From a virus (lineage: Duplodnaviria; Heunggongvirae; Uroviricota; Caudoviricetes): a stretch of DNA of 12,000 bases. Below, piece by piece: positions 100 through 12,000 of the stretch (position 1 is its first letter; every line of letters begins with the position of its first letter). The DNA is taken from the IMG/VR virus record IMGVR_UViG_2660238061_000007; one strand, 5' to 3'. Position numbers and translations under genes: made by a program. Under the pieces are notes generated by a model, which ran no database searches, was not told where the DNA came from, and saw only the letters and a list, made by a program, of their open reading frames with translations.

Positions 100-261
100 T
101 ACTTTTGCGCCTCCCAGCCGGACCGGCGCTGCGGCGTAATACGCGGCAATTTCACCAATCCAGCCGGTCAGCCTTTCCCGCTGCTCCTGACTGTTCGCGC
201 CCAGAATAAAATCCATCGCTGACTGCGTATCCAGCTCACTCTCAATGGTGGCGGCATACAT
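100..261 (-). CDS. Hypothetical protein, N-terminal 54 codons only (truncated by gap)
   Basis: Minus-strand ORF starting with ATG at 261..259 (MYAATIESELDTQSAMDFILGANSQEQRERLTGWIGEIAAYYAAAPVRLGGAKV), running into the N-gap; no family recognised. Confidence 0.3.
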
Positions 262-342
262 CGCCTTTATGAAAAGACAGGAAAAAATAAAATTTAAAAA
301 CAGTACATTACGAATGCTCAGACCTATCGTTTAAAGGAGTCG

Positions 343-363
343 CAATACACACTGCAATACACG
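343..363. repeat. Terminal direct repeats GCAATACACA x2 (candidate integrase arm-type or att-associated sites, left island end)
   Basis: gcaatacacactgcaatacac here is 20/21 identical and co-oriented with gcaatacacattgcaatacac at 11035-11055 beside the integrase gene. Confidence 0.5.
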
Positions 364-699
364 ATTATTTATAAGATGAGCGGCATCCGTCATAAAGCTG
401 GTGGATGCTTTTTCTATGCATATATGCACAGTTTTAGTGGGCGTTAATGTCGATATAGGGATCCCCATATCGAGATTGGATACCTGGCTTTTTTCCGGTT
501 AACCTTTAATCAGGCTGGTGGGCTTTACCTGTTTTGTATGAGTGGTCATCATGACCATGTCATAACAAAAACCCCATATTCGTGGTTTTTCTGTGTCGGG
601 CTATTCTGTCGTTGCTGTGCTGATTTGGCTGGTGGGCTGAATCATCATTACGGCGATGCAGCTATGTAGACGTTCCGGCCTCCTCAAATTGAGGATTGT

Positions 700-830
700 G
701 GAAGAATCAATGGGTTAGTCTTACTTTCCCGACATCCCCCAATGGGGGTTTTCGAAACAATCAATAGCTTAGGCTTACTTCCCCGATTTCCTGCATTGCA
801 GGTTTTCGAAATAATCAATGGGTTAGGCCA
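700..830. repeat. About 2.5 copies of a ~54-bp tandem repeat, each copy containing a short GC-stem palindrome
   Basis: Unit GGTTTTCGAAA(C/T)AATCAAT(A/G)G(C/G)TTAGGC at 746-774 and 800-828, partial copy at 700-719; spacers TTACTT(T)CCCGA... are also related; palindromes CCCCCAATGGGGG (735-747), CCTGCATTGCAGG (789-801), GTGCAATTTTGCAC (835-848). Confidence 0.7.
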
Positions 831-1076
831 TCGTGCAATTTTGCACTTTGCCAGCCAGCGCAATGTCGCGTTATCAGTCCTCAGATGTGAGGGATGTAGC
901 CAGCTTTTCCCCCAGTGGGGGATATCCAGCACCGACGGCTTAACTGTGCGTGCCAGCACAAGGTAGCCTTGAACTACTTACTGCATCCCATCTTACAGGC
1001 CGTGCCTTCCTGCTTAACTTTTTGCAATGCAACAAGTCAGCCAGCGCAATTTTGCGTTATCGGGAATATCAGCAAG

Positions 1077-1358
1077 TTACCGCCGCAATCGTTCCGGCTT
1101 CTTCCACTGGTAAGTATTTTTCGCGCTCTCCCTCCGTTGTTGAGAACGGCGACGATATGCCAGCAACTCAAGGACTCTTGTTCGTATGTTGCGCATATCC
1201 ACGCCGTTAAGCTCAATACCGTCACGGCGCATCACCTCAGCCACTACACGCACATAATTATCTGCGGTCACGCTGTCCGGCTGCGTGGCCTGTTCGTCAT
1301 GCTGCTTGCTGATTCCACAAGCACGGCGGATTAATCGCAGTATTTCGGATTCAGTCAT
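1077..1358 (-). CDS. Hypothetical small basic protein (93 aa) downstream of terS
   Basis: Protein-like composition (MTESEILRLIRRACGISKQHDEQ...), same strand and operon position as terS; competing plus-strand ORFs are low-complexity. No confident family. Confidence 0.45.
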   Translation of the reverse strand: MTESEILRLIRRACGISKQHDEQATQPDSVTADNYVRVVAEVMRRDGIELNGVDMRNIRTRVLELLAYRRRSQQRRESAKNTYQWKKPERLRR

Positions 1359-1440
1359 AGCGTACTACGTTACTTATCTTTATTCGGCTGCAACTTATCC
1401 GGTACGTTTCCGGCAGTTTCCATCAGATAATCGGACAGCA

Positions 1441-1911
1441 TCAGCGGTATGTTTTCGTCAAGTTTTGCGCATGCGTTACAGGCTCTGATAACTTCTTTTT
1501 CAGTCCATCCAGCATAGACGGCTTCATGTCGGGAAACTTCCTTGTCATGGCAAGCGGCAGGCTGTCCATGATTGAAGAAATCTGACTCGCCAATTTTGAA
1601 AGCACGTATATACAAAACGCTGTATCAATAACGTCGCCGCGTTCGCGCTCGTTTTTAAGCTCCTGCGCCTCTGCCTGTGCTGTCAGCAATCTGATCCTGA
1701 CTCGTAGGAGTTCATCATCATCAATCTCGCCTTTGTCGTCTGTAATCTGGTTAATTGCATTGCTAACCCGATTGTCTATTACGCTGGCAACATCATAAAA
1801 CGCCTCGCGGCCTTTACGTTCAACGGGAGTCACTCCCCACTTGTCGAACGCTGTCGCACTTACACGGCAGCTTTGCGCCATGTTTTTTTTGTTCATCAGG
1901 TGCGATTTCAT
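1441..1911 (-). CDS. Small terminase subunit, lambda Nu1-like
   Basis: Translation aligns by eye with lambda Nu1: LLTAQAEAQELKNERERGDVIDTAFCIYVLSKLASQISSIMDSLPLAMTRKFPDM versus lambda LTRAQADAQELKNARDSAEVVETAFCTFVLSRIAGEIASILDGLPLSVQRRFPEL; N-terminal MNKK motif also shared. Start is ambiguous (ATG at 1923, 1911 or 1896); 1911 has the best SD (GGGGA). Lies about 130 bp downstream of a cosN. Confidence 0.9.
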   Translation of the reverse strand: MKSHLMNKKNMAQSCRVSATAFDKWGVTPVERKGREAFYDVASVIDNRVSNAINQITDDKGEIDDDELLRVRIRLLTAQAEAQELKNERERGDVIDTAFCIYVLSKLASQISSIMDSLPLAMTRKFPDMKPSMLDGLKKKLSEPVTHAQNLTKTYR

Positions 1912-2022
1912 CAATATCCCCACTTAAGTAATGTTTCAGGTTGGTGTATTGGCTTTATCTTTTCCTTTTTATTCATAGAGATAGAGCGAACAACAAAACC
2001 ACCACCAGCACCCGAAAAAGGC

Positions 2023-2061
2023 TCATAAATAGCGAAAACCCGCGAGGTCGCCGCCCCGTAG
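2023..2061 (-). other. cos: Lambda-type cos site (cosN with 12-nt cohesive end GGGCGGCGACCT)
   Basis: Minus strand reads CTACGGGGCGGCGACCTCGCGGGTTTTCGCTATTTATGA, matching the remembered lambda cos junction over about 37 nt; positioned immediately upstream of the Nu1-like gene as in lambda. Confidence 0.85.
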
Positions 2062-2112
2062 CCTACCGGATCGCCGGAAAGGACCCGCCAGCCAGAACGG
2101 GCCCTAATTTCA

Positions 2113-2496
2113 TCAACCAATCAACTTATAGCGACCATCCCGTGCATTGCGACGTACACGCTCAATCTTGAGGCATAGCGCCGCATCTGGCTTTTTTGGG
2201 ACAGGTACGCGGCAATATTCAGAAGATCGAGGAATATTGTTTATCCAGTCGATCACTTCACTTAAATACCAGGCCTTACGCCCTTCCGTAACCTGCACAC
2301 GCTCCGGGAACTCTCCACTAGCCTCAAGGTTTAGCAATGTGCGACGGCTAAGGGTAGTAAGTTCCATCACCTGATTCATATCAACAAGGCGTTCACTTAA
2401 ACGCATTTTGTCAGCAATAGCCTTTAATTCCTCTACTGCTGGATCCGGATACATCATTTCGGCAATTGGCTTAAGGTCATTGTAATGATTCTGCAT
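2113..2496 (-). CDS. AlpA/Xis-family HTH protein with N-terminal extension (127 aa)
   Basis: Central segment MELTTLSRRTLLNLEASGEFPERVQVTEGRKAWYLSEVIDWI fits the AlpA-type HTH pattern; strong SD (AGGGGGA) 4-5 nt upstream of the ATG, 11 nt after the gpD-like stop. Confidence 0.7.
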   Translation of the reverse strand: MQNHYNDLKPIAEMMYPDPAVEELKAIADKMRLSERLVDMNQVMELTTLSRRTLLNLEASGEFPERVQVTEGRKAWYLSEVIDWINNIPRSSEYCRVPVPKKPDAALCLKIERVRRNARDGRYKLIG

Positions 2497-2507
2497 TGTA
2501 TCCCCCT

Positions 2508-2849
2508 TTACACACGAGCCAGCGGCTGAACAGAAATACCTGAGCCAACAAACGCGGCAACCTTTGCCGACAGTTCTTTTACAGACTCAGGCCAGTTCAG
2601 AGCATCAACATTTAAAACACCTGTCTTATAAACCTGTGCCTGTGTTTTTTTCGCTGTGTCGATTTGTACAGCGGAAACATAAACCGCTTTACCTACGCTC
2701 GAACCATCCCATACCACCAGTGCACCTGTTGCATCTTCCTGCATCAGTGGCGTAAATGCAGGAATTACCCCTTTATTAGCTGAAAATATCCCCAGCGTAG
2801 TCACCAGTGCTTCAGTGCCAGCCATGAGTTCAGTGTAATGAGTAGCCAT
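2508..2849 (-). CDS. Head decoration protein, lambda gpD-like
   Basis: Shared motifs with lambda D by eye: TPLM, VVWDG (lambda VAWDG), YKTG (YKSG), NWPE (LWPE), AAFVGSGISV (TAFAGTAISIV); similar length (113 aa); SD GGGGGAG upstream. Confidence 0.8.
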   Translation of the reverse strand: MATHYTELMAGTEALVTTLGIFSANKGVIPAFTPLMQEDATGALVVWDGSSVGKAVYVSAVQIDTAKKTQAQVYKTGVLNVDALNWPESVKELSAKVAAFVGSGISVQPLARV

Positions 2850-2858
2850 TGCTCCCCC

Positions 2859-3905
2859 TTAGCCAATGCGAACGGTAACAAAACGATTGATGCGGGCCGG
2901 TATTGGCTGTGGTGCTGAATGTGTCTGCACATATTCAATAGCCGGATCACCAGGCACAATATAGTTTTTCGGTGCAAGTTCGGCTTTAGTCAGCCCCATT
3001 CGGATTAGCTCCGGATCCTGAATACCGCCATAGGCGACAATCCCCTGAAGAGCCGTATTGCCAAGCACCATCAAATCAGGATCAAGGAAATGTTTTTCTG
3101 TTCCGTCCTCGTCGGTATAACGCCCGCTGTAAACAACAATCGCAACATCGCCCATATACCCTTTAAAACTCACCGAATCACCAAGGTCTTTAAGGGCCGT
3201 TTCCAGTTCGGAATTAGAACCACGACGGGTATCCAAAGCCTCTTTTATCGCTCTGAATGAACGGTATTTCTTCCATACATTACCACCCATAATGATGATA
3301 TTAGTGACGCCCTCACTAAATTCTGCGTAGCTCTCAATATCATCATTTGGATCAAAAGTTTCTTTATCCTTACCTGACCACTCAGTACCGCCAGACTGAG
3401 TGATGATATTTTGTGGTTTTATATTCCAGTCCAGCTCATAACGTTCAATACCATCGCCCTCAATGATATTTTTCCCCGTTGTGATTGCCTGAACAGCAAG
3501 CCATTCAATACGTGCACGAATAGCTTTAGCCTGATTTACAATCGCCTGTTTAACTTTAATATTACGTGCCCCAAAAGCATTGTATTGCTCAGGTGATACA
3601 CCAGCAGGGCGCACAGCTAACTTATTTGGATCAATGCTGCTTTTCGGCTTCATATAGCCTGGACGAATTGTTTTTGATTCGTACCCTTCGTCACGTGAAA
3701 CTTTACTACCCACCATAGGAGAACAAAACGCTGCAATTGGGATATTTGGATCGTCGATTGTATCAAGAATAATATCGCGCGATTCAAACATTACCGAGCG
3801 AGTAAAAAACAAACTGGTAAACAACGCATTTAGTTGTTTTTGTACATCTACAGCATTAACCACCTGTACAAGCTGAGTAGGCGAATATAAATCAACCATA
3901 CGCAT
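2859..3905 (-). CDS. Major capsid protein, lambda gpE-like
   Basis: Strong similarity by eye to lambda E: NIITQSGGTEWSGKDKETFDPNDDIESYA versus NITQSGGTEWSKRDKSTYDPTDDIEAYA; DTRRGSNSELETALKDLG and GDVAIVVYSG and MVLGNT conserved. Start set at the internal Met (MRMVDLYSPTQL, like lambda MSMYTTAQLL) with SD AAGAGG; the ORF-track extension to 4112 is judged non-coding. Alternative start 3899. Confidence 0.9.
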   Translation of the reverse strand: MRMVDLYSPTQLVQVVNAVDVQKQLNALFTSLFFTRSVMFESRDIILDTIDDPNIPIAAFCSPMVGSKVSRDEGYESKTIRPGYMKPKSSIDPNKLAVRPAGVSPEQYNAFGARNIKVKQAIVNQAKAIRARIEWLAVQAITTGKNIIEGDGIERYELDWNIKPQNIITQSGGTEWSGKDKETFDPNDDIESYAEFSEGVTNIIIMGGNVWKKYRSFRAIKEALDTRRGSNSELETALKDLGDSVSFKGYMGDVAIVVYSGRYTDEDGTEKHFLDPDLMVLGNTALQGIVAYGGIQDPELIRMGLTKAELAPKNYIVPGDPAIEYVQTHSAPQPIPARINRFVTVRIG

Positions 3906-4073
3906 CCTCTTTGCATTCATTAAAAATAATTGTGGATATATGCTACCACCGATATTTGTCATGCGAACACATGCAACCGAGTGCAATGTTGTATAAAGTT
4001 TTGGGGTGACAACTTCAGTGCGGACAATTAGTGTTAATATCTTCACTCCCTTTGGTCGGGATTTATGTAGCAT

Positions 4074-4107
4074 GCCGGAAAATTTATTTTTTCCGGCCTT
4101 TTTTATT
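4074..4107. terminator. Hairpin with T-run (intrinsic-terminator-like) between ssb and the capsid gene
   Basis: GCCGGAAAA (4074-4082), loop TTTATT, TTTTCCGGC (4089-4097), followed by CTTTTTTATT on the plus strand; the minus-strand reading lacks a U-run, so the strand of action is uncertain. Confidence 0.4.
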
Positions 4108-4115
4108 GGCAATAT

Positions 4116-4565
4116 TTAAAACGGGATATCATCTCCCCATTGCTCATTATCTCCCACTGGTGGCTGGCTTCCTTGCTGATCTGCCTGTTGTTTTGCTCTG
4201 TTCAGTTCGTCAGTAGCCTGCCCCTGTTGGCCTTTTTTGCCGCCCGGTCGCGCCGTTCGCGCACTGATTACGCTGTCTGCGATAACCTGCCAGCCCCGCC
4301 GCGTTTCGCCGTTCTGGCCTGTCCACTGGCTTACCTGCATGTTACCCGCCACGCTCACCAGTTCGCCTTTGTGGTGTTTTGCCAGTGCGTCGGCCTGTCT
4401 GCCAAACGCCAGGACGGATAACCACATCGTCGCCGTTCCGTCATCTGCCTGGCTGCACGGCAGGGGAACCGCCATACTCGCCATCGCCATTTGTGTCCCT
4501 TTGCTGGTGGTCTTTAACTGCGGGTCAGCCACCAGCCGCCCGTAAGCCGCTATCTGTGCTGTCAT
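4116..4565 (-). CDS. ssb: Single-stranded DNA-binding protein (SSB)
   Basis: C-terminal acidic tip ...WGDDIPF as in E. coli SSB (DDDIPF); OB-fold region resembles SSB; Gly/Gln-rich linker. Start overlaps the upstream ORF stop (ATGA). Confidence 0.85.
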   Translation of the reverse strand: MTAQIAAYGRLVADPQLKTTSKGTQMAMASMAVPLPCSQADDGTATMWLSVLAFGRQADALAKHHKGELVSVAGNMQVSQWTGQNGETRRGWQVIADSVISARTARPGGKKGQQGQATDELNRAKQQADQQGSQPPVGDNEQWGDDIPF

Positions 4566-4876
4566 GCTGTCTGCTCTCCGGTTTTAACATTGATGGTTGT
4601 CACCTGTTCCGCTTCGGCAATCTCCCGTTCTGTCAGCGTGGCAAAGTTTGCCGCTGCTGTGGTCATGAATGCGCTTATCAGGTCGGGATGTTCCTTCGCG
4701 TATCCTGCCCGTGTGTGGTGGTCTATCGCTTTGATTGCCACCTTTAAGGAAAGCTCTGTCATGTCTAACGCTTTATATTTTGCCTGTGTTCTGTCTCTGC
4801 GAATTTTGGTCATTTGTCGCCCCTGATTCATGTTTTCGGCTGGCATGTTTATTAAGTGATTTTTATGTATGCGCAT
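4562..4876 (-). CDS. Hypothetical protein (up to 104 aa), translationally coupled to ssb
   Basis: ORF with ATGA overlap to the ssb start; no recognised family; start uncertain (internal Mets at residues 11, 16, 22). Confidence 0.45.
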   Translation of the reverse strand: MRIHKNHLINMPAENMNQGRQMTKIRRDRTQAKYKALDMTELSLKVAIKAIDHHTRAGYAKEHPDLISAFMTTAAANFATLTEREIAEAEQVTTINVKTGEQTA

Positions 4877-4925
4877 TTATTTTCACCCCCCCCTCGTTTA
4901 AAAAGTTTTTAGTTGTGCCTCCCCC

Positions 4926-5145
4926 CCTCTACCCATCTACCCGAATGCTCATCATGTCAGTAATGGCGCGGCTTTCAGCGGGTAGATAGCTTTTTGACTC
5001 CTCTACCTGCCGTCTACCCTGCTACCTGAAACTGATAAAATCAGGTAGAAGAGGTAGAGAGCTTTTATTAGCCTTCTACCTAGCCCTATACCCACTTATC
5101 ATGTTGAATAATATGCGTTTATTTTGTTCAGGTAGATGGGGTAGA
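4926..5145. repeat. ori: Iteron-type replication origin (about 11 copies of GGTAGA/TCTACC, often in tandem pairs)
   Basis: ctctacccatctaccc (4926-4942), ggtagata (4981), ctctacctgccgtctaccc (5001-5019), ggtagaagaggtagaga (5043-5059), ttctacct (5076), ggtagatggggtagatgg (5132-5149); flanked by AT-rich and poly-C tracts; immediately 3' of the primase gene. Confidence 0.7.
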
Positions 5146-5161
5146 TGGCTTTTACAAAAAA

Positions 5162-6916
5162 TTATAAAAACGCGTCGCAATCGTCTGTTGTAATTGCGTT
5201 GGTCTGCGTTACTCCCTTAACTTTTCGCGTAATATATTCATGCCCGTAAACTTTCGCCGCTGGCTTCATGGCCTTGCTGAACTCAGCCACGTTTAGCGGT
5301 TTGCTCCTGCCCGCGTATGCCATAAACGCCAGATAGACGCGGTAAAGGCTGTTCCTGGTCGTGTACTTCACTGAATCACCACCGCCACCCATCATCAGGC
5401 CGCGCGCTTCCTCCAGAAAATTCAGGAACTGGCAAAACTCAATAACCGGATCCGTCTGTTGCTTTATTGCCAGTGCTTCATCACCGTCACGCTGTTCCAG
5501 TAGTAAAGCCCGTGCCTTCTCAGGGTCGGTAAAGTTCGCCAGCAATCGGCGGATAATAACGGGGATTTCAGCCGCAATCTTTTCCGGTAGCTCCCTGTCT
5601 TTTTCGGCCTCACTGACGATATTGTCGAAACGGAAAATCACGCGACGACGTGCCACACCTCCGGCCCGTTCGGTGAATATCATCGGGTTGTTGTTGGTCG
5701 CCAGCACCACCGCCCTGATTACCGCCGTGAAACGCTTTTCATATTTCGGGTTAATTTCCACGGGGTCGCCGCCTGTGATTTTCTTGATGCCCGTTCCTTC
5801 GCCTGTATATTTCGGCTGGTCAGCCAGGACGATAAGACGACTCCCGACAACCTGCGCACGTCCACCAGCATCATCAAGCGATGTCATTTCAGCGCTTACC
5901 GTGTTCTGTTTCCCTGCCAGAAGGCTGGCTATGTGTGTGAATGTACTTTTACCGCTCCCGCCGTCTCCGGTGGCCTCAATAAACATCTGCCAGTCGTACC
6001 GGTTCGCCATAATCATGTACAGCGCGGCACATATACGCATCATCTTGCGCGGGTCTTTTCCGGCTGCGTGCTCAAGCCATTTATGAAAGTTTGGCGCGTT
6101 ATCGCGGATGTTCTCCCCTGGTGCTGGTGGCGTGTACTCAATGCCGTTGTGCGTGGTGATCCAGTTCTCCGGCGTGTGCGGGGAAAATTCCCCCGTTTTC
6201 AGGTCAAGCGCACCATTGGCGAACGGCAGCAAATCGCCAGACGGCTCGCCCATTGGTTCGGCAATAACTTTTAACGCTTCCACGGCGTTATTGATTACGC
6301 GCTTGCTGAAAGTGGCCCTGTGCTCTGAATAGATCGCCACCATTTCGCGGCTAAGTTCCATTGTGCTGACCGGACACCATACCCCGCCGCGCCATACGTG
6401 AACGATTTCACTTTCAGGATGTACGCAAACGCCATCAAAGCGATCGGCAAGCAACTGCGCGCGCTCACTGTCCGCCATCTGCGAAAGTTGCGCCTTTTGC
6501 TTTACCGGAAGCTCAATGACCAGACCATCAGAAAGATTCTGGCGTTCACGGGCCAGATATTCGCGCCAGTTCTGCACCTCCTGGCCGTGCATACCCTCAG
6601 GATAAAAATTTGCATCCTGTACGCCTGCTGCCGCCAGCTTCTGACCAATCGCCTTTATCATTACAGGCGCAAGATATCCGGCCCTGTATATGCGTGCTGA
6701 TTTTCGGCCTTCCGGCACAATTTGCAGATTATCCAGTTCGGATAGCTGCTGCTCCCCAAGCCACACAGGAGGCTCATTATCTCCGGCCATACGCGCATCA
6801 TGTTCCTGCCATTGTTTCGCGTGTGCCCAGGCATCACTACCCGCAAAAATAATGACTTCTGTTCCTTTGTGTTTTATGCCGCGTGACTGCTGTTTTACGT
6901 TCGGTGCCAGTTTCAT
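5162..6916 (-). CDS. P4-family primase/helicase (SF3 helicase-like P-loop NTPase), replication initiator
   Basis: 584-aa ORF with Walker A GDGGSGKST and a D5/P4 primase C-terminal-like region; SD GAGGT 6 nt upstream; followed by the iteron ori, the typical pri-ori layout of PICI/P4-like satellites. Confidence 0.85.
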   Translation of the reverse strand: MKLAPNVKQQSRGIKHKGTEVIIFAGSDAWAHAKQWQEHDARMAGDNEPPVWLGEQQLSELDNLQIVPEGRKSARIYRAGYLAPVMIKAIGQKLAAAGVQDANFYPEGMHGQEVQNWREYLARERQNLSDGLVIELPVKQKAQLSQMADSERAQLLADRFDGVCVHPESEIVHVWRGGVWCPVSTMELSREMVAIYSEHRATFSKRVINNAVEALKVIAEPMGEPSGDLLPFANGALDLKTGEFSPHTPENWITTHNGIEYTPPAPGENIRDNAPNFHKWLEHAAGKDPRKMMRICAALYMIMANRYDWQMFIEATGDGGSGKSTFTHIASLLAGKQNTVSAEMTSLDDAGGRAQVVGSRLIVLADQPKYTGEGTGIKKITGGDPVEINPKYEKRFTAVIRAVVLATNNNPMIFTERAGGVARRRVIFRFDNIVSEAEKDRELPEKIAAEIPVIIRRLLANFTDPEKARALLLEQRDGDEALAIKQQTDPVIEFCQFLNFLEEARGLMMGGGGDSVKYTTRNSLYRVYLAFMAYAGRSKPLNVAEFSKAMKPAAKVYGHEYITRKVKGVTQTNAITTDDCDAFL

Positions 6917-7212
6917 TTTTTACCTCTGAATCCGTTAATCATGGTTTTCATTTTCTGGATATTTCCCCACGCTTTTTCCCTGCTGATGGGCTTACTGCGG
7001 GGTGCGGCATATACCAGGGGAAAATCACGCCGGAACTGATAAACAGGCATCACGCAGTCATAGCTATACCCCTCACGGCGGTAAGTGATGCGCCGTTCTG
7101 CCACGCCTTTAATCGTTACCGTGCCGCCGTATTTATCGCGGTAAATATCGCCGTTCATAAATTCAGGTCGAGCGGGGCCGCTGGCAATAAAGCCAGAATT
7201 TTTCATTTCCAT
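6913..7212 (-). CDS. Hypothetical protein (99 aa), stop overlaps the primase start (ATGA)
   Basis: Translational coupling to the primase; SD-like GAGGAA upstream; no family recognised. Confidence 0.55.
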   Translation of the reverse strand: MEMKNSGFIASGPARPEFMNGDIYRDKYGGTVTIKGVAERRITYRREGYSYDCVMPVYQFRRDFPLVYAAPRSKPISREKAWGNIQKMKTMINGFRGKK

Positions 7213-7229
7213 ATTATTTATTCCTCGAC

Positions 7230-7451
7230 TTAACTCGACTTATTTGATAGCAGGGCACTATTTATTGCGTCATTGAGTTTTTCTGCTGATTCATCAATAA
7301 GTGACAACAGGCCATAAGCAATATTTGCATCTTCATTGTCATTTATGCAATCAAGCCACATATTTAATATTGCTTTTGCTGAATTATTTAAAGTTAATGA
7401 ACTTTCTGCACATGCTAACAATTTAAAAAAGACTTCCCGTTCTGTATTCAT
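7230..7451 (-). CDS. Hypothetical small acidic protein (73 aa) in an AT-rich block
   Basis: SD GGGGGA 4-5 nt upstream; stop of the upstream ORF directly abuts the ATG (TAAATG); local composition visibly more AT-rich than neighbours. Confidence 0.5.
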   Translation of the reverse strand: MNTEREVFFKLLACAESSLTLNNSAKAILNMWLDCINDNEDANIAYGLLSLIDESAEKLNDAINSALLSNKSS

Positions 7452-7643
7452 TTAATCCCCCACCAGCTTACTTTCTTCCTCAATCAAAAAACTAGCGACA
7501 CTTCCCGAAAGACGCGCCAGTAGGCTCGCCAGTGCGGATATATCAGCATCTGTAATTTTGTTCGGGTATACCTCAAGAAGGCGGCAAATAATTTCTGTCT
7601 GGTGCGCACGTTCAGCGGCTTCGTGTAATGTAATTTCCTGCAT
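7452..7643 (-). CDS. Hypothetical small acidic protein (63 aa)
   Basis: SD AGAGGTG upstream; start overlaps the upstream stop (TAATG); part of the coupled operon. Confidence 0.5.
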   Translation of the reverse strand: MQEITLHEAAERAHQTEIICRLLEVYPNKITDADISALASLLARLSGSVASFLIEEESKLVGD

Positions 7644-7828
7644 TAATGCACCTCTTTTAATTCATACACTGCTGAAATAATGACTTGTGATAAGCCATAT
7701 TCTGATGATTCGCTTCTCACCGCAGCAATAGCCGTCTGAACATTAACAGCCTTCACATTCTGAGCGATACCAATTGTGTGGCCTATTGGGTTAACAGCTC
7801 GGGCAAATACACGGAAGGTTTTAAGCAT
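7643..7828 (-). CDS. Hypothetical small protein (61 aa), first gene of the operon ending in the primase
   Basis: SD GGGAG 7 nt upstream of the ATG; preceded by a roughly 380-bp regulatory intergenic region. Confidence 0.5.
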   Translation of the reverse strand: MLKTFRVFARAVNPIGHTIGIAQNVKAVNVQTAIAAVRSESSEYGLSQVIISAVYELKEVH

Positions 7829-8047
7829 GACTCACTCCCTGGCGGATTTTTGCAGCGAATACAGCAACACAACCGGACGGGCAACGGCTACGCGCTTCGC
7901 GTTCCGTCCAGGCGGTTACGTGGATGATTTGAGATTCTCCGGCACTCAGTGCCAGAAAACGCCACACAAAGGCCGTTTGTGTGTGTACAAGGTGTGGTAT
8001 ATGATTTACAGCAACCATAACGGCTCCTAGTTTACGTTGTTGGTTAG

Positions 8048-8090
8048 ACGCCCCGTATGTGTTCCCAGCACTGCGGGGCGTTGCTCTTTG
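8048..8090 (+). terminator. GC-stem hairpin with downstream T-rich tract (terminator-like or regulatory structure)
   Basis: ACGCCCCG (8048-8055), 18-nt loop, CGGGGCGT (8074-8081), then TGCTCTTTGTATTTC. Confidence 0.3.
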
Positions 8091-8109
8091 TATTTCAACA
8101 ATCCTTTCG

Positions 8110-8188
8110 GTGTGTTTCATGTTATGAGCGCATGAAACACACGTCAAGGCTTTTTGTATTTCTTTTTTTGTGTATACTGAAACACACC
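8110..8188. promoter_or_regulatory. Operator/promoter region: perfect 12-bp inverted repeat plus a third half-site overlapping a -10-like TATACT
   Basis: GTGTGTTTCATG (8110-8121), 9-bp spacer, CATGAAACACAC (8131-8142); TGAAACACAC again at 8179-8188 next to TATACT (8173-8178); SD AGGAG 8 nt before the ATG at 8209. Confidence 0.6.
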
Positions 8189-8208
8189 GATGATTAGGAG
8201 TTTCAGAA

Positions 8209-8514
8209 ATGGCAACGGCTAACAAAAACGCAAAATCACAACTGACAACTGTCAGAGTCCCACTAGATGTTATGCAAGGGATGGAATCCGTTAAGCTGGA
8301 CGGTGAAAGCAATGCCGGATTTATCGTAACCGCCATGCGCGGAGAAATAGCCCGCCGCCAAGCAGAAGGCAGCGGAGAAAATCCCCTTGTGTCGTCACTG
8401 GATGCCCTGGCTAAGGTCGAACAAATCGGCATCAAAGCAGCCGAGGAGATCGGGCAACTCGTCACCGTCGCGCGTGAAGAACTCCAGCGACGCAAGGTCA
8501 AAGAGCATGAATAG
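8209..8514 (+). CDS. Putative ribbon-helix-helix DNA-binding protein (101 aa), candidate island regulator
   Basis: Excellent SD (AGGAG, 8-nt spacing); N-terminal LTTVRVPLDVMQGMESVKLDGESNAGFIVTAMRGEIARR fits a beta-strand/helix/helix RHH pattern; transcribed divergently from the small-gene/primase operon, beside palindromic operators. Confidence 0.55.
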   Translation: MATANKNAKSQLTTVRVPLDVMQGMESVKLDGESNAGFIVTAMRGEIARRQAEGSGENPLVSSLDALAKVEQIGIKAAEEIGQLVTVAREELQRRKVKEHE

Positions 8515-8571
8515 CCAATATCAGCGCCATAGTTTGAGGAACGCAGGCGCATTGCTTTACAGGACAGCACC

Positions 8572-8751
8572 ATGAGCGACACAGAATCAACCAAAACACC
8601 ATCACCAACTCGTAAGAGACGACGCAAAAATATAGCGCATGAACATGAATCAGAAAGATTCGCACCTTGTTCGTTTGCTCTTGAGAAATTCCTTAAAGAG
8701 CACAGGAAAAAGCTCTCGTTGCAAACCTTGGAACGAACCAAATCTGACTGA
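8572..8751 (+). CDS. Hypothetical small basic protein (59 aa)
   Basis: ORF below the 60-aa track cutoff, found by manual translation (MSDTESTKTPSPTRKRRRKNIAHEHE...); AGGA 7 nt upstream; followed by an intrinsic terminator. Confidence 0.35.
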   Translation: MSDTESTKTPSPTRKRRRKNIAHEHESERFAPCSFALEKFLKEHRKKLSLQTLERTKSD

Positions 8752-8817
8752 TCACATTGCCCACCAGCCGCAAATGTGGCATTGTTGGTGATGCTTTTGT
8801 TTTCCCTTGTTCCCACT

Positions 8818-8847
8818 GGCGACCCTTTTGCGGTCGCCTTTGTTTTG
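8818..8847 (+). terminator. Rho-independent terminator of the plus-strand two-gene unit
   Basis: GGCGACC (8818-8824), loop CTTTTGC, GGTCGCC (8832-8838), then TTTGTTTTG. Confidence 0.6.
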
Positions 8848-9426
8848 TCACTGAATGCGGTTACCAAAGTAAAACTCAGGCTGATATTCACGTATCAGCG
8901 TTTTTTCTTCTTCCTCCAGCTCACGCTTTTTGCGCTTACATGCCTGTAGCTCCCTCCCCTTCTCGCTGGCACTTATTTGATATTGCTCTTTACGGCGGGA
9001 AAAATCCTGTAATGCACCCCACGGGATACCATAAGTCCCCGTTTTTCTGATACCTGGTATCACATTTCTGAATACCCAGTTACTGAAACGATGAGCAAAT
9101 GTGCCAGGCGTCGTTGCTTTGCGGCTGCGGGCTATTAGTTTGTAGAAACCTGACTCAGAGATAATTCTCATATTCTGATTTCCTCCTGGGGTGTAAGTTA
9201 AATTTACTCCCTTTTCATCATCATCAAGCATCTGCAACGCCGTACGCGAATTGGTTAGTTCCAGCGCAGCACAAACATCTTTTGCAACAAACCACGGATC
9301 GCCGTTCAGATACACCACACGAACGTTCACACTATCAAAGCGCAGAACGACGAGATCACGAATATCGCAGAATTTTTTCACTGGACGAGCGTACCCCTTG
9401 CCCGTCACGGCAATATTTTTATTCAT
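8848..9426 (-). CDS. Bro-N domain protein (putative antirepressor-like)
   Basis: Bro-N hallmark segments VRVVYLNGDPWFVAKDVCAALEL, GGNQNMRIISESGFYKLIARSRK and FSNWVFRNVIPGIRKTGTY. Confidence 0.8.
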   Translation of the reverse strand: MNKNIAVTGKGYARPVKKFCDIRDLVVLRFDSVNVRVVYLNGDPWFVAKDVCAALELTNSRTALQMLDDDEKGVNLTYTPGGNQNMRIISESGFYKLIARSRKATTPGTFAHRFSNWVFRNVIPGIRKTGTYGIPWGALQDFSRRKEQYQISASEKGRELQACKRKKRELEEEEKTLIREYQPEFYFGNRIQ

Positions 9427-9444
9427 CGCGTTTTTACCTTATAG

Positions 9445-9470
9445 ACAAAAAACCCCTCGTGATGAGGGGC
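9445..9470 (-). terminator. Rho-independent terminator after alpA
   Basis: Minus strand reads GCCCCTC ATCAC GAGGGG TTTTTTGT, located between the alpA stop (9483) and the Bro-N start (9426). Confidence 0.55.
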
Positions 9471-9482
9471 ATTATTTACTGG

Positions 9483-9740
9483 TTATTGCTGTTTTGTTTT
9501 TCCAGGTTTCCATCCAGGATGCCACTCACCACGGATCCATGCCTGAACCTCTGAAAGTCGATACCCTGCAGCACGTTCACCGATCTTGATACGTCGCGGG
9601 AATTTACCTGCCTGCTCCATTTTCCAGCGTGTTGAGTTTGCCAGCGTGGTAAGTGCTATGCACTCTTTTTCACGAATGAACCGATCAATGTCCTTCATTG
9701 TGCGCAAATCGTTTTCATCAACAAGAGAATAAATTGCCAT
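9483..9740 (-). CDS. alpA: AlpA-family transcriptional regulator/excisionase-like HTH protein
   Basis: 85-aa protein with AlpA-type HTH (ALTTLANSTRWKMEQAGKFPRRIKIGERAAGYRLSEVQAWI); start 1 nt after the integrase stop, the typical int-alpA pairing of P4-like/PICI elements. Confidence 0.8.
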   Translation of the reverse strand: MAIYSLVDENDLRTMKDIDRFIREKECIALTTLANSTRWKMEQAGKFPRRIKIGERAAGYRLSEVQAWIRGEWHPGWKPGKTKQQ

Positions 9741-9741
9741 A

Positions 9742-10983
9742 TCACACCACCTCTTTATTAAGCTCGATAACGTTGTTGTTAAATCCTGCTATCGTATTAA
9801 GGTAATTAACCCACATATTAAGCACCTCAAGTTTTTTCTTTATATGCCTGCTTTTATTGTAAACACCAGCAACCCCTTTCACTTTATGACCTAAAAGAAG
9901 TTCGACAATATAAGGATCCGCCCCCATATCATTAAGCGTAGTGGAAAATGTGCGCCTGAAATCATGTATGCACCACAAGCCATTAGTATCATGACCAAGA
10001 CGCCTGCATATTCTGTTTGCAGCCCCTGTTATTGTCGCCCTTTGCAAAGCACAACCGACAACATAACCGCGATTTTTTGTTTCTGCGTAAAGATTAACGA
10101 TCCATTGTTTTATTCCGTCAGGAACAGGCCTTACTATAGCCTCCTTGTTTTTGCTGTGCTCTTTTGGGACTGTCCATACCCAGTTTTTTAAATCCCATTC
10201 GTCCCAGGTGGATAGCCTCGCCTCCTGCTGTCGGCAACCAAACACCAGGCAGATAACCATTATTCTTCGGTTATATATTGATGACAGAGTTAGCAAATTA
10301 TTACCGTAAGCATAAGACCATACATCAGCGGTTTCATTGATATTAAGAACGCGATCCCTTATACCGGATGAGCGCCCGACATAACTTACGTTAATATCTC
10401 CAAAGGGATCGCACGCGATGTATTGCCTGACGCGACAAAAACGCAACGCCTGTTTGATATCAAGAAAAATTGCACCAGACATAACAGGCGCATTTTTTTT
10501 GATCCTGTCAAAGACGGTAAGCCATGTGTGTAATTTGCACTGTTCTATAGCCATATCACCGATATAGGGGAAGATATGCTTTTCAAATCGTTTTATTAAA
10601 TATTCATGCTCTTTTCTGGCTGTTGTGGCGTGATTGTCGTACCAGTAAAACAGCGCATCCCTTACGGTCACTGGTTGCATAGTTTTTTCGGCAGCAAGTT
10701 TTATTTGCCTGCGGGGGTCCAGATTTTCAGCCAGCCATTCACGGCACTGATCACGCATGCGCCTGGCCGTTGCAAGAGACATGTCAGGATAGCGACCAAG
10801 TGTAAGCCATACCGGAGGGGATTCCCTGCCACCAAGACGATAGTAAAAAACAAAGCTGATCCCCCCAACCATGCTTACACGCACAGACAACCCGCGCCCA
10901 TCCGCTATTGTTTTTTGTTTGTCCTGCCGTTTTCCGACAAGACTCTTTAACAGTTTGTCACTGAGTTTGTTTTCAATAGCCAT
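9742..10983 (-). CDS. int: P4-type tyrosine integrase
   Basis: 413 aa; P4-family N-terminus (DKLLKSLVGKRQDKQKTIADGRGLSVRV...LGRYPDMSLATARRMRD) and catalytic-region motifs (HDFRRTF, LLGHK, Y near C-terminus); SD GAGGG upstream. Confidence 0.95.
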   Translation of the reverse strand: MAIENKLSDKLLKSLVGKRQDKQKTIADGRGLSVRVSMVGGISFVFYYRLGGRESPPVWLTLGRYPDMSLATARRMRDQCREWLAENLDPRRQIKLAAEKTMQPVTVRDALFYWYDNHATTARKEHEYLIKRFEKHIFPYIGDMAIEQCKLHTWLTVFDRIKKNAPVMSGAIFLDIKQALRFCRVRQYIACDPFGDINVSYVGRSSGIRDRVLNINETADVWSYAYGNNLLTLSSIYNRRIMVICLVFGCRQQEARLSTWDEWDLKNWVWTVPKEHSKNKEAIVRPVPDGIKQWIVNLYAETKNRGYVVGCALQRATITGAANRICRRLGHDTNGLWCIHDFRRTFSTTLNDMGADPYIVELLLGHKVKGVAGVYNKSRHIKKKLEVLNMWVNYLNTIAGFNNNVIELNKEVV

Positions 10984-11003
10984 TAAAAGCCCTCAAGAGA
11001 TTT

Positions 11004-11056
11004 GCAATACACACCCATCCCGATCGCCAATTTGCAATACACATTGCAATACACAA
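11004..11056. repeat. Three copies of TTGCAATACACA beside the int promoter (candidate integrase arm-type or att-associated sites, right island end)
   Basis: gatttgcaatacacacc (11004-11020) and gcaatacacattgcaatacac (11035-11055), co-oriented with the copies at 343-363. Confidence 0.5.
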
Positions 11057-11245
11057 AACCGCGAAAAACTGGAAGGGTGATGAACGGTCATCAAAAGCAT
11101 GGAAAACGACATTCCAGACGCAGCAAGGGTTTCAGTGGAGTTGGCGAACGATGCGGGCAACTACGGTGAGATGATAGACATAAATCGCCTTCACAATGGC
11201 GCTCTGCAGCTGCGTGTTCTGCAGCGTGTCGAGCATCTTCATCTG

Positions 11246-11255
11246 NNNNNNNNNN
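11246..11255. other. Assembly gap (N10)
   Basis: Run of 10 N. Confidence 0.9.
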
Positions 11256-11309
11256 ATTGTAATGACAACGTTTCGCGGCTATTCTTGTATTGTTTGGATG
11301 CAAGAATGG

Positions 11310-11360
11310 CCCCCGTGGTGTTGTCAGGTGCATACCTGCAACGTGCGGGGGTTTTCTCTC
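11310..11360 (+). terminator. GC-rich stem-loop followed by a T-run (terminator-like)
   Basis: CCCCCG...CAGGT GCAT ACCTG...CGGGGG followed by TTTTCTCTC. Confidence 0.4.
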
Positions 11361-11618
11361 TCCAGCAACCAATGCCACCAGGGATTAAGCCCCCGCAACA
11401 TTGCGCCTCACCGGAATCCTTCCGGCTTGACGCTGATTCTACGACTGTTTTTCTGTTCCGGAATCCGTCTCATCTTCACTCTGTGCTGCGCATTCCGCAG
11501 AATATTATCCGCTTGCAACCGTTGCATTTTTCTTACGAAAAAGGCCGCAGAGTTTCACCCCTGCGGCCTGGTCCGGGCGCAAATTGCCATTACGGCAGCC
11601 TGACGCCCGCATGACACG

Positions 11619-11726
11619 TTACTTCCGCTTATTCAGCCAGTTCACGATCATACTGGCAAGAATGCCAGCAATGACCGGAGCCGCTAAATCATGCCAGAAG
11701 GCCATGCCCAGTTCTGCGAGCGTCAT
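11619..11726 (-). CDS. ldr: Ldr-family type I toxin peptide (35 aa)
   Basis: Translation MTLAELGMAFWHDLAAPVIAGILASMIVNWLNKRK closely resembles remembered E. coli Ldr peptides (LdrD-like). The start codon abuts the N-gap, so the 5' leader and antisense Rdl region are not visible. Confidence 0.65.
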   Translation of the reverse strand: MTLAELGMAFWHDLAAPVIAGILASMIVNWLNKRK

Positions 11727-11736
11727 NNNNNNNNNN
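11727..11736. other. Assembly gap (N10)
   Basis: Run of 10 N; the FII-like reading frame does not continue across it. Confidence 0.9.
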
Positions 11737-12000
11737 GAAATTTTCCTCACCGATGGTCAGCGTGTCTCCACGCCGCAGCTGCCGCGCATCATCAGTCCGG
11801 ACAAACAGGGACGGGCTGGAGCCTTCAACGCGCACGCCCTGTCCGGCATAGCTGATATTTTCAGGGTCATCAAAAACACCACGTATCACCGCACCTGACT
11901 GCTCACCGGATGTAATGGTGGCTGACGTTCCCATGTACCCGCGTATCGTTTCATCGGCGCGGGCAATGGCAGCATCGAACAGGTTATCGAAATCAGCCAC
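11737..12000 (-). CDS. FII: Lambda FII-like head-tail joining protein, partial (first 88 codons, truncated at gap)
   Basis: Translation (M/V)ADFDNLFDAAIARADETIRGYMGTSATITSGEQSGAVIRGVFDDPENISYAGQGVRVEGSSPSLFVRTDDARQLRRGDTLTIGEENF is near-identical to remembered lambda FII; the first codon at the window edge is GTG. Confidence 0.7.

Follow-up and report, generated by a model that had tools for sequence, protein, structure and literature searches.

A capsid and decoration gene pair in the late zone of a probable helper-embedded satellite within the portal gene of a lambda-like Escherichia coli prophage

Gene content and boundaries of the island

The window analysed here, that is, the whole 12,000-nt stretch of IMG/VR record IMGVR_UViG_2660238061_000007, carries a satellite island with its own homologues of two phage lambda head genes, E (major capsid protein, gpE) and D (head decoration protein, gpD). 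Both lie between the gene for a single-strand DNA-binding protein (SSB) and a packaging unit made up of a cos site and a gene for a small terminase (TerS). An initial annotation, made from the sequence alone, had already described the element as a phage satellite with a gpE-like gene, a gpD-like gene and this arrangement, and profile searches with Pfam and PHROGs bear out these assignments (Table 1). The start of E is better placed at 3899 than at the 3905 given originally, as an AAGAGG ribosome-binding site precedes it by 7 nt and RefSeq gives the same start.

We reject contiguity of the window as a whole. Only positions 100-11245 form one real contig, and the remainder consists of concatenated draft contigs joined by N10 spacers at 90-99, 11246-11255 and 11727-11736. 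The match of the last piece (11737-12000) to the lambda FII gene is also not colinear, since in complete genomes FII is found on the other side of the island; it is not physically adjacent to the island here. Prophage-nested satellites are easily misread where draft contigs break at repeated prophage sequence.

Over the real contig, identity is 99.96% to E. coli JNE23-011 and 98.9% to many other complete genomes of the species. Two complete E. coli genomes near-identical to this contig (99.96%; L001 and L002 below) were used for context and annotation. The gene order in both is nohD (Nu1), large terminase (TerL), W, the N-terminal half of the portal gene, the island from int to an open reading frame (ORF) of 93 aa, the C-terminal half of the portal gene, an S49 protease gene (gpC), D, E, FI, FII and tail genes, all on one strand. 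The island is therefore co-oriented with the portal gene that it interrupts; Nu1-A-W lies on its upstream side and C-D-E-FI-FII-tail on its downstream side. The surrounding prophage is referred to here as the helper, and its E and D proteins are 99.7% identical to lambda gpE and 100% identical to lambda gpD, respectively.

The helper portal gene is interrupted at codon ~275. Its two fragments in L002 match Pfam Phage_portal_2 at positions 2-239 (N-terminal half) and 235-354 (C-terminal half), which puts the interruption at profile positions 235-239. The two junctions have only AAGGCGAT(T/G)TATG in common (255-267 and 11179-11191), and because these att cores are all that the junctions share, the island is delimited to 268-11178. 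Its length is accordingly 10.9 kb, correcting the earlier figure of about 10.7 kb. When the flanks are joined in silico at the 8-bp core AAGGCGAT, an uninterrupted portal ORF of 533 aa results, colinear with the intact portal of a CFT073 prophage. The two portal fragments overlap at the core only, and the target gene is thus disrupted without replacement sequence.

Integration of this kind has been described by Tommasini, Mageeney and Williams (bioRxiv 2022; NAR Genom Bioinform 2023) for helper-embedded phage-inducible chromosomal islands (HE-PICIs), of which 491 were reported at 14 sites (PMC10111431). The HE-PICI sites lie in cognates of the lambda late genes A, B, C, E, V, T, H, L and J, and the islands are co-oriented with these genes and inserted without replacement sequence (PMC10111431). 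The published HE-PICI motif, tgTGTATTGCantgTGTATTGCa, is doubled, and attP contains it twice, 81+/-2 and 132+/-2 bp away from the centre (PMC10111431). The window contains five motif matches where 1.06 would be expected by chance, and the spacing of the doubled TGTATTGC copies from the att core centres, ~80 and ~131 bp, agrees with the published distances. The supplement of the same study lists 11-kb E. coli islands named Eco....11.B_Phage_portal_2_241 with the identity block 'aaggcgat' (PMC10111431). The att core aaggcgat of the window island and its flank are identical to the entry Eco10269.11.B_Phage_portal_2_241, and the split at Phage_portal_2 positions 235-239 is near the published position 241 (site B:Phage_portal_2:241). 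The published att core together with the doubled motif at the published spacing places helper TerL, portal, protease, D and E immediately beside the island.

The genes between the att cores form four zones: int-alpA; Bro/ylcI/icd; DUF4222-primase-SSB; and E-D-HTH-cos-terS-93aa (HTH, helix-turn-helix). This layout matches the published Integration, Bro, Replication and Late zones of HE-PICIs gene for gene (PMC10111431). All named island genes but ylcI are on the minus strand, with int at one end followed by alpA. Searches of the island ORFs against Pfam and PHROGs found no portal, protease, scaffold, TerL, tail or lysis family. The initial annotation had reported portal, protease, scaffold, TerL and tail genes to be missing from the window, which holds for the island and fails for the window, where the ends of the portal gene (100-267 and 11192-11245) and the start of FII (11737-12000) are present. 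Families of the P4-like genes sid, psu, delta and epsilon were found in no ORF by Pfam or PHROGs; the primase alone is P4-alpha-like, and the helper context is lambdoid.

The island also has several general properties of Gram-negative PICIs (GN-PICIs). Its int is followed by alpA, its genes are mostly unidirectional, its 10.9 kb fall in the 10-20 kb class, and it is without lysis genes, tail genes or a complete head module. It holds replication genes, namely SSB and a primase 97.8% identical to that of the prototype EcCICFT073, and a helper-type cos (exact cosN) with a Nu1-type terS that is frameshifted in this copy. Taken together, the data indicate, with a probability of about 0.9, that the region around E and D is the late zone of a 10.9-kb HE-PICI of the EcCICFT073 family, co-oriented in the portal gene (the lambda B cognate) of a lambda-like E. 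coli prophage at site B:Phage_portal_2:241. The embedding in the portal gene was overlooked by the initial annotation; it was published for HE-PICIs in 2022/2023, with this island type and site in the supplement (PMC10111431).

Genes for portal, protease, TerL, D and E do occur within a few kb of the island in the complete genomes, as would suit a capsid-forming PICI (cf-PICI) or a decayed prophage remnant with its other head genes elsewhere. These genes, however, are outside the att cores, in an ordinary lambda late operon, and the att mapping refutes an assignment to the island, which makes either explanation hardly credible. The cf-PICIs have their own HK97-fold capsid and TerS, as here, but also TerL, portal, protease and head-tail connectors, none of which is in the window island; of a head module it holds capsid, decoration and TerS only, and its int-alpA-Bro-primase layout is typical of PICIs.

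Table 1. Features of the window, with coordinates counted from its first letter.
Feature	Position	Strand	Evidence or remark
Helper portal, C-terminal half (lambda gpB type), start of, cut by contig end	100-254	-	Maps to L001/L002 pseudogene 'phage portal protein, missing N-terminus'
att core copy AAGGCGATGTATG	255-267	-	Junction of island end and portal C-half; sole block common to both junctions
HE-PICI doubled motif GTGTATTGCAgtGTGTATTGCg	341-362	-	~80 bp from att core centre
93-aa conserved protein, last late-zone gene	1077-1358	-	PHROG 1561 (unknown function) 1e-55
Nu1-type small terminase (terS)	1370-1912	-	PHROG 57 terminase small subunit 7e-42, whole-length match
cos site	2012-2088	-	77-bp stretch 90% identical to helper region just upstream of nohD/Nu1
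cosN GGGCGGCGACCT	2045-2056	-	Exact
AlpA-family HTH protein, 127 aa	2113-2496	-	Pfam Phage_AlpA 1e-8; PHROG 2790 2e-48
D, gpD-family head decoration protein, 113 aa	2508-2849	-	Pfam HDPD 4e-15; PHROG 49 6e-26
E, gpE-family major capsid protein, 346 aa	2859-3899	-	Pfam Phage_cap_E 2e-41; PHROG major head protein 7e-90
SSB (replication zone)	4116-4565	-	Pfam SSB 6e-16; 66% identical to EcCICFT073 SSB
P4-alpha-like primase/helicase (D5_N, DUF5906, Pox_D5)	5162-6916	-	Pfam domains; 97.8% identical to EcCICFT073 primase
DUF4222 protein	6913-7212	-	Pfam 4e-23; 72% identical to EcCICFT073 counterpart
Small ORFs, function unassigned by PHROGs	7230-8514		RefSeq annotation of L001/L002
Icd-like gene	~7821-8018	-	RefSeq annotation of L001/L002
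YlcI/YnfO gene	8209-8514	+	RefSeq annotation of L001/L002
Bro-N domain protein (Bro zone)	8848-9426	-	Pfam Bro-N 5e-20
AlpA regulator/excisionase	9483-9740	-	Pfam Phage_AlpA 5e-14
Tyrosine integrase	9742-10983	-	Pfam Arm-DNA-bind_3, Phage_int_M, Phage_integrase
Extra single motif copy	11003-11012		
Second HE-PICI doubled motif copy	11033-11054	-	~131 bp from att core centre
att core copy AAGGCGATTTATG	11179-11191	-	Junction of portal N-half and island
Helper portal, N-terminal half, end of, cut by contig end	11192-11245	-	Maps to portal gene in L001/L002
rdlD antitoxin RNA	11292-11357	+	Rfam RF01813, 81.7 bits
Short Ldr-like ORF MTLAELGMAFWHDLAAPVIAGILASMIVNWLNKRK	11619-11726	-	Strand opposite rdlD
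lambda FII head-tail joining gene, start of	11737-12000		Pfam Phage_attach 1e-17

The capsid and decoration genes and the packaging cassette

The alignment of island E with lambda gpE covers both proteins in full, at 42% identity and with 12 gap positions in 349 columns. A search of the PDB matched E to 3BQW (E=2.5e-121) and to the lambda gpE cryo-EM chains (5e-77). The sequence of 3BQW is that of c1499 of EcCICFT073, and the fold of E, as judged by these sequence matches, is already fixed by 3BQW and lambda gpE. Identity to the surrounding helper E is likewise 42%, and identity to c1499 is 55%. Island D is 38% identical to the gpD of both lambda and the helper and 54% identical to c1500 of EcCICFT073. 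The closest phage capsid to island E among 50,697 phage records has ~42% identity. Transcription runs from ssb through E, D, the AlpA-like HTH gene, cos and terS to the 93-aa ORF, so that E precedes D, the reverse of the helper order; the earlier argument that this order speaks against simple carry-over from lambda is upheld.

Both genes are intact in all six copies compared, with dN/dS values at informative distances of 0.05-0.08 for E and 0.09-0.15 for D. A scan of genome contigs for relatives returned four close loci, which give context and are too few for a phylogeny. In these loci, from Kluyvera, Superficieibacter, Cedecea and Kosakonia, the E-D-HTH module is kept, E is 80-87% identical, and the context is always that of a satellite, twice embedded in helper gene E. 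The E/D pair is found in 395 of 5,426 complete E. coli genomes, borne by islands in the portal gene, in capsid gene E, at tRNA-Pro and in the roxA/phoQ region. Given the best phage match of only ~42%, the distance of E and D from their helper counterparts, the reversed gene order and the conservation of the module across genera, recent capture is not indicated. The sequences instead point to an old, satellite-specific and co-inherited capsid/cement lineage under purifying selection.

The same evidence bears on the proposal that E and D are functionless passengers, either late genes recently captured from the helper or a backup of a disrupted gene. It has been proposed that the late zones of PICIs take up late genes of the helper, and that some copies serve as backups for interrupted genes (PMC10111431); many relatives of the island sit in helper gene E. 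A recent capture is nevertheless difficult to reconcile with the 42% and 38% identity to helper E and D, the reversal of their order and the lack of any closer copy in the sequenced phages (50,697 records), and the low dN/dS and five-genus conservation indicate long vertical maintenance within satellites. A spare E would also be no backup here, as the disrupted gene is the portal gene and not E. We regard the passenger explanation as very unlikely.

Downstream of the E-D-HTH module, the right flank of cosN equals the lambda sequence as far as '...TATTTATGA' and then diverges from lambda cosB. Relative to lambda, cosN is thus conserved and cosB differs. The TerS encoded beyond cos matches Pfam Phage_Nu1 at profile positions 80-162 of 164 only, which is the reported TerL-binding half, and its 36% identity to helper Nu1 is found mainly in the C-terminal ~100 aa. 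In the window, one nucleotide of a T-run in terS is missing near 1480 (T5 versus T6 in L001/L002). The resulting frameshift splits the 180-aa protein into ORFs at 1441-1923 and 1370-1615; the 180-aa version is intact in L001/L002.

PDB searches with the 160-aa and 180-aa versions of TerS matched no lambda Nu1 N-terminal structure. An identity as an Rpp protein was considered and rejected, since the same searches gave no RppC and BLASTP against RppA returned nothing. In another E. coli strain, an island with the same backbone at the EcCICFT073 chromosomal site (L008) carries a Nu1-type terS at 8603-9145, where the CFT073 genome (L005) has rppA at 37660-38094. Because this island holds terS and not rppA at the EcCICFT073 site, the two genes look, on comparison of the loci, like alternative packaging-redirection cassettes.

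Relation to known satellites and possible roles of E and D

A satellite that supplies only a shell protein and its cement had been thought undescribed by the initial annotation, which was wrong. Of a head module, EcCICFT073 (Fillol-Salom 2018) has just the capsid gene c1499 and the head decoration gene c1500 (PMC6092414), and 21 of the 29 reference GN-PICIs have a capsid gene (PMC10111431). The island type, the integration site and the capsid/decoration genes were thus already in the literature of 2018-2023, and near-identical copies are annotated in RefSeq. What is new here is that E and D are satellite-specific, conserved in five genera and under strong purifying selection, and that a Nu1-type TerS replaces RppA. 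The published islands Eco10269.11 and Eco14781.11.B_Phage_portal_2_241 (PMC10111431) are like the window island in host species, length (~10.9 kb), target gene and codon, att core and flank, motif spacing and co-orientation. On these points, the Eco...B_Phage_portal_2_241 islands show no substantive difference beyond the 1-nt terS frameshift of the window.

The gene order of EcCICFT073 in the CFT073 genome is int, alpA, ylcI, icd, small ORFs, DUF4222, primase, a hypothetical gene, SSB, capsid, decoration, a small gene, RppA and the 93-aa ORF. This is the order of the window island, including the capsid, decoration, small, packaging and 93-aa genes, and both are cos-type satellites with a lambda-like cosN and their own cosB. 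Protein identity between the two islands is 97.8% for the primase, 76% for the 93-aa ORF, 72% for DUF4222, 66% for SSB, 55% for E, 54% for D and 40% for the integrase. EcCICFT073 differs in its chromosomal site, which is between roxA and phoQ and not in a prophage portal gene. It also has RppA (144 aa, binding helper TerS) where the window island has the 180-aa Nu1-type TerS, and an unrelated acidic 137-aa protein where the window island has the AlpA-like HTH protein.

The 11capE or E:Phage_cap_E:80 HE-PICIs share the late module E-D-HTH-terS-93aa with the window island (E is 98.8% identical in L006) and are likewise embedded in a lambdoid late gene. Their integrases appear to be of the same family: the window integrase is 52-54% identical to those of islands embedded in gene E, compared with 40% for EcCICFT073 and 25% for a tRNA-Pro PICI. 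Islands of the 11capE type break helper E, so that their own E could substitute for it, whereas the window island breaks the portal gene. SaPIbov5 Ccm is also a helper capsid homologue in a satellite without a full head module, although the sequence families are unrelated. SaPIbov5 is not known to have a decoration gene. Both SaPIbov5, with Ccm, and PmCI172 are satellites with a lone capsid homologue, and PmCI172 makes small heads (PMC6092414). With Ccm, assembly is diverted to small capsids and the helper is blocked, while the EcCICFT073 capsid gene has neither effect (PMC6092414).

The architecture of the island, the restorable portal gene, cos, the hybrid TerS and the intact E and D are seen in the sequence, and a life cycle can be proposed for it by analogy with 11capE/50icd and EcCICFT073. 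Upon induction, the composite prophage would excise and replicate, and helper late transcription would read into the island and activate int and alpA. Int and AlpA would then excise the island, by which the portal gene would be repaired, and the island would replicate via its own primase. The island TerS, with its divergent N-terminal DNA-binding half and Nu1-like C-terminal half, would recruit helper TerL to the island cosB beside the lambda-identical cosN. Concatemers of ~4 units (43.6 kb, 0.90 of the lambda length) would be packaged in heads and tails built by the helper.

Our best guess for E and D within this life cycle, which we hold at roughly even odds, is that both have a working structural role. 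Alone or in mixture with gpE/gpD of the helper, they would assemble on the portal, protease and scaffold that the helper provides; with a lambda-type helper in the laboratory they would be redundant. Having its own E and D would lessen the reliance of the satellite on the amount or compatibility of helper E and D.

Several points weigh against the reading of the island as a functional HE-PICI with a working E/D pair. Induction, excision, packaging and helper identity are carried over to the window island from its relatives. The sole functional data on E and D come from EcCICFT073, where deletion of c1499 or c1500 left lambda interference and island transfer by resident prophages unchanged (PMC6092414); the lack of a phenotype neither supports nor excludes a structural role. 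The window terS loses the C-terminal ~41 aa, within the region corresponding to Nu1 residues 100-181, which in lambda are reported to contact TerL (PMC6739421). This copy may be packaging-defective by a real mutation, or the deletion in the T-run may be a sequencing error. Finally, 11capE is stated to lack terS, and packaging routes thus differ within the family (PMC10111431).

Small heads are known from satellites in which a capsid homologue stands alone, as in the case of SaPIbov5 Ccm and PmCI172, and it is conceivable that island E and D, like Ccm, join the portal and scaffold of the helper in forming small capsids (T=3 or T=4) of a size for the 10.9-kb island. By our own volume-scaling estimate, a T=3 shell would hold ~13.6 kb, of which one unit takes up 80%, and a T=4 shell ~21 kb, or roughly two units. 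The divergence of E and D from the helper copies and the selection on them would also fit. On the other hand, four units (43.6 kb) fit a normal lambda head, and size arithmetic alone cannot separate the capsid models. In EcCICFT073, whose c1499 is 55% identical to the window E, the packaged DNA is all phage-sized, and deletion of c1499 or c1500 is without effect on transfer or interference (PMC6092414). The end-to-end alignment of island E with lambda gpE shows no obvious indel that would change shell geometry. A small-capsid role therefore seems improbable.

A further explanation is that E and D serve mainly in interference or defence, poisoning the capsid assembly of the helper or of an invading lambdoid phage through mixed defective shells, or titrating scaffold or portal. 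PICIs often interfere with helper morphogenesis, a function unrelated to transfer would account for strong purifying selection on genes whose loss leaves transfer unchanged, and 42% identity to helper E might permit co-assembly short of full compatibility. In EcCICFT073, however, deletion of c1499 or c1500 did not relieve lambda interference, which is explained there by RppA (PMC6092414, PMC6739421). The co-inheritance of a cognate decoration protein with E in five genera also suits a working shell better than a poison subunit. We consider interference a doubtful main role for the pair.

With some natural helpers, E and D may build satellite-only shells, possibly smaller ones, or chimeric shells that alter the stability or host range of the transducing particles; we think this rather unlikely. 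If true, satellite-only or chimeric shells would be a partial, two-gene step towards the capsid autonomy of cf-PICIs. Strong purifying selection has maintained a private gpE/gpD pair in PICIs of at least five genera, yet its deletion in the prototype was without measurable effect. Solving the role of E and D would show how far cos-type satellites depend on the helper shell and whether intermediates between capsid-less PICIs and cf-PICIs exist.

Other features of the window

In each of the five genera, the AlpA-like HTH gene (64-98% identity) follows D in tight linkage, and it lies directly upstream of cos; a late regulator or a cos-binding accessory factor are candidate roles for its product. 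The 93-aa protein has no Pfam match. It is 76% identical to the product of the last EcCICFT073 gene and present in L006-L008 and L010, with dN/dS of 0.13-0.40. The gene was undetected in the Kluyvera, Cedecea and Kosakonia loci (L009, L011 and L012) and is present in all other relatives examined. The sister HE-PICI in helper gene E (L006) carries cargo genes of the abortive-infection family and with a TIR domain at 7411-8172 and 15747-16622; at the corresponding positions, the window island has non-coding sequence or Bro/ylcI genes only.

A scan of positions 900-5200 for promoters and terminators found fewer promoter-like sites than in shuffled sequences and no convincing minus-strand terminator between ssb and E. 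Rfam searches at the gathering threshold found no C4/isrK-type immunity RNA in the island, the sole hit in the window being rdlD on an unrelated contig. Three tandem 54-nt units (675-836), each with its own short palindrome (CCTCCTCAAATTGAGGA, CCCCCAATGGGGG and CCTGCATTGCAGG), lie in the 0.8 kb of non-coding sequence that separates the last island gene from the att core. Just 3' of the 93-aa ORF, a 24-nt direct repeat, CAGCCAGCGCAAT(G/T)T(C/T)GCGTTATC, occurs at 852-875 and 1038-1061, 186 bp apart.

The 471-bp piece at 11256-11726 is a separate small contig, not adjacent to the island, and holds an unrelated ldr/rdlD toxin-antitoxin fragment. The ORF opposite rdlD, MTLAELGMAFWHDLAAPVIAGILASMIVNWLNKRK, would encode an Ldr toxin, and the pair is probably a chromosomal type I toxin-antitoxin locus.

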